Position numbers and translations under genes: made by a program. The notes below the pieces were generated by a model. That model was not told the origin of the DNA. It did not search any database and was given only the letters and a program-made list of their open reading frames with translations. Shown one piece after another: positions 3,752-25,842 of a stretch of DNA of 64,000 bases (position 1 is the first letter of the stretch; every line of letters begins with the position of its first letter). The stretch comes from Candidatus Shapirobacteria bacterium. Lineage in GTDB: Bacteria; Patescibacteriota; Microgenomatia; UBA12405. The stretch spans positions 16,676 through 80,675 of the forward strand of contig JBAZZE010000001.1 of NCBI GenBank assembly GCA_041658955.1. Reading direction: 5' to 3'.

Positions 3752-4612
3752 ATGAGTTGGCTAGTACTAACTATCCTTGGTATGTTTGCAGTCGCTACTG
3801 CCGATGTTAGTCAAAAAATTACTCTCAAAGGCCAGTCACCACTTAGTAGTATTACCAATAACTTCCTTGTCTGGAATGGTATTGGTGTTTTGGCTTTGAT
3901 CTATTTTTTACTTTCAGGGCAAAAATTTCCGGTACTGACACCAACCTTTTATTATCAATTTGCCCCCATGACAGTTCTTTATTTTCTCGGGGGAACTTTT
4001 TATTATCAAAGTTTTAAAAGTAAAAGTGTTTCTATCTCGGCAGTTCTGGCCACCATATCTTCAGTTATGACCACTGTTTTGGGTATATTTCTCTATGGTG
4101 AGAGTACTCATCCTTTAAAATTTCTGGGTTCAGCTTTTATTATCGTGGCAATTTTCATGGTTAATTTTCATAAGAATTCTCATTTTGATAAATATAACCT
4201 TTATGCCCTCTTGGGTGGAATTTTTTATGGTTTTGCTTATGCTCTCGACAAACATTTTGTCCTCAACTCAACTCCTGACTTTTATCAAATTGTTCTCTGT
4301 TTTGCAGTTGGTATGGCTAGCCTTATCTTTAGCCCAGCCAGAATCGTTAAAGAACTTAAGCATTTTCACCGAGGACTTCTAATCTCAATAATATCTTCAA
4401 CCTTCTTTTTCTTTCTCTATCAGAAGTTTTACTTTCTGGCTTATACTCGCGGCGGGGAGGTGGGTCGGATTGATGTCCTTAATAACACCACCATCTTTAT
4501 CGTTATTTTACTTGAGTACTTTTTACTAAAAGACAGGACAAATCTCCGACAAAAGATTCTTTCGGCAATAATAGCAGTTATCGGAGCAACTTTACTTTCT
4601 ATCGCAAACTAA
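3752..4612 (+). CDS. Membrane protein, EamA/DMT-type transporter-like (about 10 TM)
   Basis: Hydrophobicity pattern with two repeated 5-TM halves. No sharper motif. Confidence 0.45.
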   Translation: MSWLVLTILGMFAVATADVSQKITLKGQSPLSSITNNFLVWNGIGVLALIYFLLSGQKFPVLTPTFYYQFAPMTVLYFLGGTFYYQSFKSKSVSISAVLATISSVMTTVLGIFLYGESTHPLKFLGSAFIIVAIFMVNFHKNSHFDKYNLYALLGGIFYGFAYALDKHFVLNSTPDFYQIVLCFAVGMASLIFSPARIVKELKHFHRGLLISIISSTFFFFLYQKFYFLAYTRGGEVGRIDVLNNTTIFIVILLEYFLLKDRTNLRQKILSAIIAVIGATLLSIAN

Positions 4613-5147: not shown

Positions 5148-5221
5148 GGCAGGATAGCTCAGTTGGTTAGAGCATCGCATTCATAACGCGAAGGTCGCGG
5201 GTTCAAGTCCCGCTCCTGCTA
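5148..5221 (+). tRNA. tRNA with anticodon CAU (elongator Met or lysidine-Ile2)
   Basis: Acceptor GGCAGGA/TCCTGCT (1:72 is G:U), D-arm GCTC-AGTTGGTTA-GAGC, anticodon loop TTCATAA, T-arm GCGGG-TTCAAGT-CCCGC. The anticodon stem is not three G-C pairs and 11:24 is Y:R, so it is not the initiator. Confidence 0.75.
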
Positions 5222-5224
5222 CTA

Positions 5225-5298
5225 GGGCATGTAGCTCAGTCGGTTAGAGCACCGATCTTATAAGTCGGGGGTCCATGGTTCGAGTCCATGCATGCCTA
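5225..5298 (+). tRNA. tRNA-Ile (anticodon UAU)
   Basis: Acceptor GGGCATG/CATGCCT, D-arm GCTC-AGTCGGTTA-GAGC, anticodon stem CCGAT/GTCGG with loop CTTATAA (U33, then TAT, then A37), 5-nt variable loop, T-arm CATGG-TTCGAGT-CCATG. Confidence 0.7.
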
Positions 5299-5301
5299 CT
5301 T

Positions 5302-7440: not shown

Positions 7441-8144
7441 GTTAACTATGCCCCAGTGTTTTTCCGGAAAAATTTGCGAAGCTTTGTGCTGTGGTTCGTG
7501 TAATGTGTCCAATGACGCTGCCAGAGCCAAATTCCCTGCCGGAAAAGTTTTGTCTATTCGCACTTCTTGGGATTATCTTGAGTTAAGCATAACCCGTACT
7601 GACCCAACTCCTGTGGGAGAAATCAAAGAAATCATCGTCCGTAGAGGTATAATAAGTACCATTATTCAAAATAACAATTCATAATCATGACTTTAAGCAA
7701 AGATACAATCCAACGATCGTGTAGCCGCCCACCAGCAAGTGGAGTTGGTGCCCGAACAATTGAAGACTGTGGACACCCTATTCAGAAGTACTTACCACCT
7801 TCAGAACATTGTATTGCTTGTATTACTGCATCTATGAGGGGTGGTCAGGCTGTTGATGTTCCAGCGTCTAGAAATTCCCAACCAATTCCTCAGAAATAGT
7901 CAAATTATTCTCGGTGTTATAATCTGCTATGGCAGGACCGACAACTCTTCCTGAAAATATCCTTCGAGATATTCGTCTGGCGATTAGCACTGGTCTAATA
8001 ACTCCCCCTCTTTCTGCTCGCTCCACGGAGCCTGGAGCCATTAGAATCGGTGACGAAACTTTTGATCCATCCACTCTAAGTGACCTGATTACTCGTAAAA
8101 TTCAATCCACTCCTGTTACTGACCTAATGTTCGACATTGGCTAA

Positions 8145-24726: not shown

Positions 24727-25413
24727 ATGGGTTACGCTGGAAAAATAGCCGAAAGAGAACTGGCAATTTCACTAAGAAAAAAAGGATATTCTTATAACCA
24801 AATTCAAAAATCTACTGGGTTGTCAAAAGATACTATATCTAGAACTTGTAGACAGGTTATTTTGACTAAAGATCAAATAAAAAATCTTGAAACACGAAGA
24901 ACTGCAGGTCAGATGTTGGCTTCAATTAAAGGTGCAAAGTCAAATCAGCTTAAGAAAGAGATCATACAAAAACAGTTATTAGAAGAAGGGGTCCGGCAGG
25001 TAGGTGAGTTAACTCGAAGGGATAAGTTCATATTTGGCATTTCACTTTATCTTGGTGAAGGCTCGAAAACAGGAAGCGCAGTTGAGTTTACTAATGCAGA
25101 CCCCATAGCTGTTAAGTTCATGCTCAATTGGTTCGTTGAATTCTGTGAAATACCTCAGGAAAGTATCAAGGCCAGTCTTTGGATTCATGACAACCTGAGC
25201 GAACCTGAAGCCAAAAAATATTGGTCAAATTTATTGGGCATCGAAATATCACAATTCGATAAGTCCTATATTGCAAAAAACAGGGTAGATAGTCGAAAAA
25301 TACGCAAAAATATTCACAAATATGGAATAATAAAGATTCGATACTATAGTGTAGCCAAATTACGCCTTATATTAGGTTGGATAAAGGGTGTACTTTCTAG
25401 TTACTCAGGATGA
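24727..25413 (+). CDS. HTH-domain protein with a LAGLIDADG-like segment (possible free-standing homing-endonuclease-like gene)
   Basis: N-terminal HTH (GYSYNQIQKSTGLSKDTISR). A central segment FIFGISLYLGEGSKTG resembles a single LAGLIDADG motif. The gene ends 40 bp upstream of the intron-containing tRNA. Confidence 0.35.
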   Translation: MGYAGKIAERELAISLRKKGYSYNQIQKSTGLSKDTISRTCRQVILTKDQIKNLETRRTAGQMLASIKGAKSNQLKKEIIQKQLLEEGVRQVGELTRRDKFIFGISLYLGEGSKTGSAVEFTNADPIAVKFMLNWFVEFCEIPQESIKASLWIHDNLSEPEAKKYWSNLLGIEISQFDKSYIAKNRVDSRKIRKNIHKYGIIKIRYYSVAKLRLILGWIKGVLSSYSG

Positions 25414-25452
25414 TATAATCATCAAGTCTTTCGCACATTCAACAATTTATCT

Positions 25453-25737
25453 TCCCCCTTAGCTCAGTGGTAGAGCGCTCGCCTGTTCCTATAGAGCAGC
25501 TTTCACGAGTAATCGTGATCGAAAATCGGGAGAATTGCGTGAAACCTAACCTGTCGCAAGACAATATGGCAACCCGCAGCCGAGCTCCAACTTTGGTTGG
25601 AGAAGGTTCAGAGACTAGGTGAGTACACCTTTAAGCACCCGAGTCCCATTTATGGGATATGATATAGTCCAAGCCTGTTAGAAATACAGGATTTACTTGT
25701 AAGCGATTGGTCCGAAGTTCGAATCTTCGAGGGGGAG
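25453..25737 (+). tRNA. tRNA gene interrupted by a 213-nt group I intron; exons give tRNA-Asn (GUU) on the most likely junctions
   Basis: 5' exon 25453-25486 (acceptor TCCCCCT, U8, A9, D-arm GCTC-AGTGGTA-GAGC, anticodon stem CTCGC, loop C-T-G-T). 3' exon 25700-25737 (T-A-A, GCGAT, variable TGGTC, T-arm CGAAG-TTCGAAT-CTTCG, acceptor AGGGGGA, discriminator G). The exon ends in U and the intron ends in G, as group I splicing requires. Confidence 0.7.
25487..25699 (+). ncRNA. Group I self-splicing intron (ORF-less) in the tRNA anticodon loop
   Basis: Conserved core elements are present: P AATTGCGTGAAA (25533-25544), Q AACCCGCAGC (25571-25580), R GTTCAGAGACTA (25606-25617, exact consensus), S GATATAGTCC (25661-25670). 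P1 pairing CUGU/GCAG with U.G at the 5' splice site; terminal G at 25699. Confidence 0.7.
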
Positions 25738-25842
25738 CATATTAAAAAAGTCCGTCAAAAAATGACGGATTTTTTAATATCTTCTTCCAAAAGTTCCAAT
25801 TCACTTTAGTGAGGGGAGTTTATCCACCGTGGCGGAAATCCT
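25735..25842 (+). repeat. Repeat copy A (tRNA 3' end plus about 100-bp trailer)
   Basis: GAGCATATTAAAAAAGTCCGTCAAAAAATGACGGATTTTTTAATATCTTCTTCCAAAAGTTCCAATTCACTTTAGTGAGGGGAGTT... This is near-identical to copies B and C. Confidence 0.8.
25744..25776. terminator. Bidirectional intrinsic terminator in the tRNA trailer
   Basis: AAAAAAG-TCCGTCA-AAAAAA-TGACGGA-TTTTTT: a 7-bp stem flanked by an A-run and a T-run. Confidence 0.5.

Follow-up and report, generated by a model that had tools for sequence, protein, structure and literature searches.

A tRNA-Asn(GUU) gene of Candidatus Shapirobacteria split at 35/36 by a predicted group I ribozyme, and the gene linked to it

The classical group I introns of bacterial tRNA genes are the IC3 ribozymes of organisms such as Anabaena and Azoarcus, which interrupt tRNA-Leu(UAA) at 34/35 and tRNA-fMet at 33/34 in cyanobacteria, and tRNA-Arg(CCU) and tRNA-Ile(CAU) at 36/37 in proteobacteria. 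Here we describe a locus from a 64-kb stretch of Candidatus Shapirobacteria bacterium (Patescibacteria, Microgenomates lineage, candidate phyla radiation or CPR), referred to throughout as the window and the frame of all window coordinates, in which the region 25453-25737 consists of two tRNA halves with 213 nt between them. In all probability (about 0.92), this is a tRNA-Asn(GUU) gene split between U35 and U36 by a 213-nt group I ribozyme that lacks an open reading frame (ORF) and would be spliced out to restore the anticodon GUU. Like the IC3 introns, it is a small ORF-less ribozyme in an anticodon loop, with a P1 helix formed from loop bases, a P1-P9 core and, by prediction, the same chemistry. 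Unlike them, it resides in tRNA-Asn(GUU) at 35/36, a site outside the IC3 set, and its family carries an insertion of IA type between P7 and the 3' strand of P3.

The closest described systems come from the same phylum. The Williams 2020 preprint reports that the known tRNA/intron settings rose from 4 to 21 (bioRxiv 10.1101/2020.01.27.920355); 'Asn.4Ug', the 35/36 setting of tRNA-Asn, is among them according to Nakagawa et al. (PMC13011429), whose main subject is the Patescibacteria tRNA-Asn introns at 35/36 (bioRxiv 10.1101/2025.07.03.662931; mSystems 2026, PMC13011429). The host tRNA and insertion position, which a first-pass annotation made from the letters of the window had considered undescribed, are thus those of a published class. 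Among 95 complete Patescibacteria genomes, 15 tRNA-Asn and three tRNA-Asp genes bear introns at 35/36; of 28 introns at this position, 25 were assigned to IA, and no Patescibacteria intron to IC (PMC13011429). The tRNA-Asn intron of GCA_016700035.1 self-splices in vitro precisely at 35/36, and mutation of its terminal guanosine (omegaG) to C stalls the reaction (PMC13011429). Most such introns were found to lack endonucleases and were hence concluded to be essentially immobile (PMC13011429).

The window intron shares with this class its host tRNA, insertion site, phylum, U-1/omegaG rule and GCAGC guide, and its 213 nt lie within the reported 184-894 nt. It is homologous along its whole length to the spliced example, aligning end to end with the GCA_016700035.1 intron and also with that of GCA_016700135.1 (Table S3 sequences), and is a further member of a published, experimentally validated class. 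Differences are nonetheless present: the locus comes from a Shapirobacteria-type metagenome-assembled genome (MAG) outside the 95 complete genomes; the intron is reduced, one short hairpin taking the place of the two, P7.1 and P7.2, that most members possess; and Nakagawa et al. considered intron-encoded endonucleases (HNH) only, leaving unreported a conserved upstream gene to which we return below.

The split gene is composed of three parts:

25453-25486, forward strand: 5' exon of tRNA-Asn(GUU), 34 nt, from splice simulation; identical to positions 4103-4136 of the intron-less contig L124.
25487-25699, forward strand: ORF-less group I intron of 213 nt, its last base being omegaG25699; supported by the Rfam model RF00028, presence or absence relative to L124, and alignment to the GCA_016700035.1 intron.
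25700-25737, forward strand: 3' exon of tRNA-Asn, 38 nt, through discriminator G73.

The 5' exon supplies the 5' strands of the acceptor stem (starting at U1) and of the anticodon stem, the D-arm, and loop positions 32-35 (C-U-G-U), its last base U25486 being both U35 of the tRNA and U-1 of the intron. From the 3' exon come U36, A37 and A38, the 3' strands of the anticodon and acceptor stems, the variable loop, the T-arm and G73; the gene itself does not encode CCA. When splicing was simulated for all pairings of 12 donor with 16 acceptor positions, the junction 25486/25700 proved to be the sole one combining U-1, omegaG and a canonical cloverleaf, and it yields a 72-nt tRNA-Asn(GUU) carrying CGCCUGUUAAGCG. 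A family scan of one genome per species, based on the pattern S element, then G/UAA, then T-loop, returned at least 120 loci, 102 of which rebuild to split tRNA-Asn(GUU). All 102 possess U1-A72, G73, U-1 and omegaG, the last by construction of the scan, and the window gene shares U1-A72 and G73 with every one of them. The omegaG boundary is fixed independently, to within one T, by the intron-less allele of L124.

That allele carries the greatest weight. A metagenome scan for the predicted ligated sequence matched one contig, L124, which comes from the same Joint Genome Institute (JGI) sample as the intron-bearing contig L002. Gene content and order around the locus are those of the window, flank identity being ~85%, and L124 harbors an uninterrupted tRNA-Asn(gtt) (67.9 bits as a tRNA, reading ...CGCCTGTTAAGCG...) that equals the window exons joined at 35/36, identical over the whole mature tRNA. 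The window differs by a clean 213-bp block whose boundary is ambiguous by one T. This ambiguity is resolved by the U.G pair of P1, the omegaG rule, and the relatives whose intron starts with a base other than U; such relatives are the majority, and in them the 35/36 position is unambiguous. At the level of sequence, the intron-less orthologue proves the 35/36 junction. Because the uninterrupted copy is the orthologous locus of another organism, it confirms the junction and is no sign of a pseudogene. The anticodon stem (25479-25483 with 25703-25707) has a C27/U43 mismatch that recurs in L124 and in the Shapirobacteria MAG L023, and which is therefore a lineage feature and not damage.

Automated annotation arrives at a different host. 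Default ARAGORN and the Rfam tRNA model detect no tRNA at the locus, and the intron mode of ARAGORN returns exactly a tRNA-Thr(tgt) with a 213-nt intron, which would be inserted at 33/34 (U25484 closing the 5' exon and U25698 opening the 3' exon) and whose spliced product also folds as a cloverleaf. This assignment to tRNA-Thr(UGU) is practically out of the question. Its intron would end in U25697 and not in G, a breach of the terminal-G rule that the first-pass annotation had already held against it; the guide base G25496 pairs with U35, not U33; and the tRNA body has the U1-A72 and G73 of the Asn relatives. The same two-base miscall by ARAGORN and tFind, Thr at 33/34, is documented for the published class and was disproved by sequencing the spliced product of a homologue (PMC13011429). 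Finally, the uninterrupted tRNA of L124 reads CCTGTTAAGCG, Asn(gtt), and not CCTTGTAAGCG, which excludes Thr(UGU). The annotators' preferred junction, Asn(GUU) at 35/36 with a U.G pair at the 5' splice site and a terminal G, is accordingly borne out: the pair is U25486.G25496, the intron ends at G25699, and the product of the only junction to combine both rules with a canonical cloverleaf equals the uninterrupted tRNA of L124.

The 213 nt between the exons have the architecture of a group I intron. RF00028 matches 25477-25691 on the forward strand over its full length (model positions 1-253) with 63.8 bits against a gathering score of 50 (E = 7e-14). The four core motifs start at 25533 (P, AATTGCGTGAAA), 25571 (Q, AACCCGCAGC), 25606 (R, GTTCAGAGACTA) and 25661 (S, GATATAGTCC), each occurring once in the window, and no credible ORF was found in the intron. 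A 213-nt ORF-less group I intron in the anticodon loop, with exactly these four elements, was what the first-pass annotation had proposed from the letters; the covariance model, the P1-P9 fold and the uninterrupted orthologue, which it had named as checks, all agree with it. The structure, drawn by hand as P1, P2, P3, P4, P5/5a, P6/6a, P7, a small hairpin, P8, P9.0 and P9, comprises the following elements:

25483-25499, forward strand: P1, 6 bp; exon C-U-G-U and intron U-C (25483-25488) paired with the internal guide GAGCAG (25494-25499).
25504-25517, forward strand: P2 hairpin, 5 bp, GUAA loop; all five pairs changed on both sides, 96% of cells paired.
25526-25530, forward strand: P3 5' strand UCGGG, pairing with 25638-25642 (CCCGA); four of five pairs compensatory.
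25536-25578, forward strand: P4 (25536-39 with 25575-78), enclosing P5 and P5a; P4 100% paired, with 10-25 double changes per pair.
25545-46 with 25568-69, forward strand: P5, inside P4.
25552-55 with 25560-63, forward strand: P5a, GCAA loop, inside P4.
25580-25606, forward strand: P6 (25580-81 with 25605-06) and P6a (25585-91 with 25596-602); compensatory changes, recovered by the single-sequence fold.
25613-25617, forward strand: P7 5' strand GACUA, pairing with 25665-25669; part of the Rfam R/S core.
25618-25629, forward strand: small hairpin GGUG-AGUA-CACC, 4 bp, between P7 and the 3' strand of P3; recovered by the centroid fold.
25638-25642, forward strand: P3 3' strand CCCGA, partner of 25526-25530.
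25644-25657, forward strand: P8 hairpin, UCCCA with UGGGA.
25665-25669, forward strand: P7 3' strand UAGUC, preceded by J8/7.
25670-25699, forward strand: P9 hairpin (25674-78 with 25686-90) within a P9.0-like pairing of CAAG (25670-73) with CUUG (25696-99) that reaches omegaG.

P3 and P7 cross to form a pseudoknot, and the P7 helix is the expected guanosine-binding site of group I introns. In P1, the wobble U25486.G25496 marks the 5' splice site and is present in all 44 relatives having letters at that column. Across the 53 relatives aligned, the four exon pairs of P1 are invariant, and the +1 pair, formed by the first intron base with the base 5' of the guide G, occurs in all four Watson-Crick combinations (GC 20, AU 9, CG 6, GU 3, UA 2, UG 1). 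Between P7 and the 3' strand of P3, where the window intron has one hairpin, the alignments give most relatives two, P7.1 and P7.2, an insertion of IA type. Michel and Westhof are said to have made these extra pairings the mark of subgroup IA in 1990. A later review names P7.1 and P7.2 as class-defining peripheral elements without assigning them to IA (PMC3984707). With its single hairpin at this place, the window intron may belong to IA or be a reduced derivative.

Covariation argues for this fold. Pairs were counted in 53 ORF-less relatives aligned with MAFFT, with no structure guiding the alignment. Standard pairs fill 85% of the cells, compared with 33-46% when partners are slid by 1-3 columns, a control in which a structure derived from one aligned sequence is somewhat favored. 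Cells changed on both sides number 543 against 191 in shuffles, and the covariation score of 0.415 (control, 0.137) was reached by none of 500 shuffles. Compensatory changes are present in P2, P3, P4, P6, P6a, P8 and P9.0; in the P9.0-like pairing, the two pairs beside the C-omegaG position covary (AU 47/GU 4/GC 2 and CG 33/UA 10/AU 6/UG 3). P7 is identical in 53 of 53 relatives and, since it never varies, adds no covariation evidence. Folded alone, the window sequence recovers most helices in its centroid structure (z = -3.4).

Several observations pull the other way. The RF00028 threshold is cleared by 14 bits only, the base of P1 has a C-C mismatch (C25482/C25500), the tested structure came from one of the aligned sequences, and P10 is weak, being a single pair (U25700-A25495) whose pairing is not kept in the relatives. 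P7.2, the second hairpin of most relatives, is missing, and the intron belongs to the short, reduced subset of its family, so that unaided splicing could be inefficient. Support for splicing at this particular locus is at the DNA level, not the RNA level, and the view of the genome is 64 kb, leaving room for a second tRNA-Asn gene elsewhere. The absent P7.2, the weak P10, the modest Rfam score and the genome out of view beyond the window are also what would be expected of a decaying pseudogene whose intron had lost splicing while another tRNA-Asn gene served the cell. Such decay is nevertheless very improbable. All positions invariant in the 53 relatives are intact, the exons are identical to the functional-looking tRNA of L124, and a promoter-like element and a terminator are in place. 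The locus is retained in three independent metagenome contigs, and the strain variants of the same organism, L001 and L002, differ only in P8 (CCCAUUUAUGGG to CCCGAUAAUAUCGGG), a compensated change by which the helix is kept and lengthened. The second intact copy proposed as a sign of a pseudogene does not occur within the window, where no other tRNA-Asn was found; the intact copy belongs to another organism, that of L124.

The reading as a functional split tRNA-Asn gene suggests the following course of events, in which the anatomy is that observed at this locus and the chemistry is borrowed from general knowledge of group I introns and from the homologues tested in vitro. Two flanking elements frame the transcript:

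25411-25419, forward strand: probable extended -10 element TGATATAAT, by reading of the sequence; overlaps the TGA stop of the upstream gene.
25745-25781, forward strand: strong intrinsic terminator, 13-bp stem and T-run, a few bases 3' of the tRNA.

The extended -10 sits 34 nt upstream of tRNA-Asn, and relatives have a similar TATAAT at the matching place; a strict promoter scan upstream of tRNA-Asn found nothing because there is no -35. From its sequence, TGATATAAT is the probable promoter element of the tRNA, and transcription probably runs from there to the terminator. The intron would then fold through P1-P9 with the P3/P7 pseudoknot, and the guide GAGCAG would pair with C32-U33-G34-U35 of the anticodon loop, bringing U25486.G25496 into the active site. 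The first attack, after U25486, would be made by a free guanosine lodged in P7; G25699 would next occupy the same pocket, and the freed 5' exon would attack after G25699, so that ligation of ...CCUGU to UAAGCG... would restore the anticodon GUU. Trimming by RNase P and addition of CCA would complete the 72-nt tRNA-Asn. With P10 nearly absent, the tRNA anticodon stem probably helps to position the 3' exon. Since C-U-G-U is all that the guide reads, an intron of this kind is possible at 35/36 of any tRNA with a GUN anticodon, which fits the Asp and Tyr cases in the literature.

The family extends well beyond this organism. The loci of the family scan are mostly from Patescibacteria, with some from Omnitrophota, Nitrospirota, Gammaproteobacteria and others, and the class therefore exists in at least about a hundred species-level genomes, far exceeding the 15 tRNA-Asn cases in 95 complete genomes of Nakagawa et al. 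Intron lengths at the 102 reconstructed loci range from 180 to 723 nt, and ~25 of the 30 long introns encode an HNH-type protein of ~100 amino acids. In a viral collection, seven of 24 matches rebuild to tRNA-Asn(GUU) split at 35/36 (L137, L150 and L160, which are IMG/VR contigs of 76-163 kb, and L138, L144, L145 and L159); the remaining 17, like the remaining 18 loci of the family scan, were not resolved by exon reconstruction. Three of the seven have a G1-C72 acceptor stem, unlike the bacterial U1-A72. Judged by these sequences, the 35/36 class may also reside in phage genomes, and some 'viral' contigs, for example one of 543 kb, may be misclassified CPR genomes. In two relatives, L023 (~7704-7741) and, at the matching place, L135, a structured insertion of ~38 nt (…UCCUGAAAAGGAGUCCGUAUCUCGCAAGAGCAUCGGAC…) is lodged inside the 5' strand of P4 between UUG and CG, an unusual site for a peripheral element. 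In the close relative L020 (rpoD 81% identical), the tRNA-Asn intron is 458 nt long with no ORF above 36 codons, at a locus without the conserved upstream gene; the additional length of this intron may stem from an endonuclease gene that has decayed.

For the intron itself, the practical importance lies in annotation. At its gathering score, RF00028 reports no intron in the clear members L126, L127 and L065, and the intron mode of ARAGORN labels the split tRNA-Asn of relatives as Val, Asp, His or Thr (L130, L134, L135 and L136 are among the members affected). The annotation blind spot is thus wider than the published Thr miscall. Where split tRNA-Asn genes are missed or mislabelled, genomes seem to lack tRNA-Asn, and completeness estimates suffer.

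The genomic setting of the locus is chromosomal, with dnaG and rpoD closely upstream of the split tRNA and a window G+C of ~38%. Gene order is shared with the Shapirobacteria MAGs L023 and L125, and RpoD is 90% identical to that of a Shapirobacteria MAG with the same gene order. The product of the upstream gene, 228 amino acids long, exactly matches a hypothetical protein of a Candidatus Shapirobacteria MAG (NCBI name) and is 68-77% identical to its counterparts in Shapirobacteria MAGs; the exact match and the synteny with L023 and L125 place the host in Patescibacteria. A phage origin of the window was considered and rejected: megablast of 12 kb against phage records gave one irrelevant 110-bp match, and the dnaG/rpoD context is chromosomal. 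Elsewhere in the window, a tRNA-Met(CAU) gene (5148-5222, forward strand) is followed 3 nt later by a tRNA-Ile gene with anticodon UAU (5225-5299, forward strand). tRNA-Ile(UAU) is an uncommon isoacceptor in bacteria, where AUA is usually read by a lysidine-modified CAU tRNA.

As a member of a described class, the intron is of modest interest, and the part of the locus worth following up is the linked gene:

24727-25413, forward strand: gene for a 228-amino-acid protein, a candidate partner of the intron; an N-terminal helix-turn-helix (HTH) is followed by a long helix and then, at the C terminus, by a LAGLIDADG-like domain (motif FIFGISLYLGEGSKTG).

It ends 39 nt before the tRNA, its TGA stop overlapping the -10 element. 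The N-terminal HTH is well supported, HTH_23 matching 22 of 30 family members (best E = 5e-7). The C-terminal alpha/beta domain carries G-x3-Y-x-G-[ED]-G-x-K at residues 104-114, in which G104, Y108, G112 and K114 are invariant and the motif residue is acidic in 29 of 30 members. On our own reading of this motif, the protein possesses a LAGLIDADG-type helix motif with a conserved acidic residue. When the family profile was compared with the PDB, the best matches were all I-DmoI, motif to motif (the second I-DmoI motif), at a marginal E = 0.018, and the AlphaFold2 (AF2) model has a predicted local distance difference test score (pLDDT) of 91. Searches with the protein in Pfam, NCBIfam and PHROGs gave HTH-type matches only; no curated LAGLIDADG model of Pfam matched the protein at E <= 10 or stood among the 25 most-matched families of the 30 members at E <= 1, and Foldseek against the PDB returned only non-specific OmpA-like and IspF-like matches (template modelling score, TM, <= 0.3). 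Taken together, the LAGLIDADG-like fold is a putative assignment of moderate confidence. An identity as transposase was dropped because the IS630-like match, a weak one at E = 8e-5 and 22 bits (cutoff 100), does not extend beyond the HTH.

The linkage of this gene to the intron is strikingly regular in one direction. Homologues of ~225 amino acids were located in L023, L125-L136, L007 and L065, and in all 13 independent lineages examined (Shapirobacteria, Roizmanbacteria, Portnoybacteria, Wildermuthbacteria and others), an intron-split tRNA-Asn(GUU) begins no more than ~45 nt past the homologue, despite differing surrounding genes. The intron-less L124 lacks the gene through a clean ~690-bp indel ~73 bp from the intron site. 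The converse fails: the gene is present at 3 of the 120 intron-bearing loci, most of which, including that of L020, have no copy nearby. Gene-linked introns are shorter than the others (median 213 vs 243 nt, p = 3e-4) and never contain an internal HNH ORF (0 of 13 vs 30 of 99, p = 0.02), by tests that ignore shared ancestry. Wherever the intron is universal in a lineage, the same association would also arise from ordinary synteny. We found no paper describing the gene, and its linkage to the intron-split tRNA-Asn may be new to science. Four of the 13 loci have as their immediate downstream neighbor, encoded on the opposite strand, a large serine recombinase gene (Resolvase, Recombinase, Zn_ribbon_recom):

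L132, 3447-5033: serine recombinase gene.
L133, 1291-2766: serine recombinase gene.
L134, 2420-3687: serine recombinase gene.
L135, 2533-3681: serine recombinase gene.

The tRNA-Asn locus may be an integration site, or the gene-intron pair may border a mobile element.

From its sequence and position, the protein may be a free-standing homing endonuclease, or a maturase or other splicing helper of the intron. LAGLIDADG-fold proteins, with or without an HTH, are also found in non-nuclease roles; examples are WhiA and two LAGLIDADG maturases, I-AniI and the Thermotoga 23S intron protein. WhiA combines two LAGLIDADG domains, both degenerate, with an HTH at the C terminus, whereas the present protein has one domain, an N-terminal HTH and the acidic motif residue; the known maturases are encoded inside their introns, unlike this gene. 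If the intron is a true group I intron whose efficient cellular splicing needs the protein as maturase, the reading of the locus as a split tRNA-Asn gene is untouched, and only the autonomy of the ribozyme is at stake. Group I maturases of the LAGLIDADG type are known, including a bacterial 23S intron example (PMC3984707); the gene stands directly upstream of the split tRNA in 13 of 13 lineages and is absent from the intron-less relative; and the gene-associated introns are the shortest of the family, several of them falling below the Rfam threshold. Dependence on the protein is all the same unlikely: related introns splice protein-free in vitro (PMC13011429), most intron-bearing loci, L020 included, lack the gene nearby, and an acidic, metal-binding motif residue kept in 29 of 30 members would suit a nuclease better than a pure maturase.

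An alternative role is suggested by collaborative homing, known from phages (review PMC3984707), in which free-standing endonucleases accompany introns, such as F-CphI with the psbA intron of cyanophage S-PM2 and T4 mobE with the nrdB intron (PMC3984707; PMC2790892; PMC6083498). As in those pairs, an endonuclease-like gene lies here ~73 bp away from where an ORF-less intron is inserted, both are missing from a related genome, and the gene is never seen without the intron, which would protect the host's own target. The likeness has its limits, in that a nuclease activity and its target site are conjectural here; the intron sits in a tRNA gene of a genome-reduced, cellular organism instead of a protein gene of a phage; and the protein would be LAGLIDADG-like with an HTH and not HNH or Endo VII-like. 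The family also looks long-lived and length-conserved, which would fit a domesticated role as well. With these reservations, we tentatively propose, at rather less than even odds, a two-part element in which the ORF-less intron and a free-standing HTH/LAGLIDADG-like endonuclease, targeting the DNA of the uninterrupted tRNA-Asn anticodon stem-loop, would spread together by co-conversion; in a variant, the protein would have been domesticated as a splicing helper. As an endonuclease gene, it could survive only where the intron splits the target, the carrier's own gene being thereby protected; as a maturase gene, it would be useless without the intron.

To our knowledge and in the papers searched, collaborative homing has so far been encountered in phages only. 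If the proposal is true, it would be at work on an essential tRNA gene in genome-reduced Patescibacteria, and the published view of these introns as essentially immobile would need revision. A role of the linked gene as the intron's endonuclease or maturase, if real, would also supply a concrete and testable mechanism for the persistence and movement of ORF-less introns in the smallest genomes of bacteria, and for their retention there despite genome reduction.

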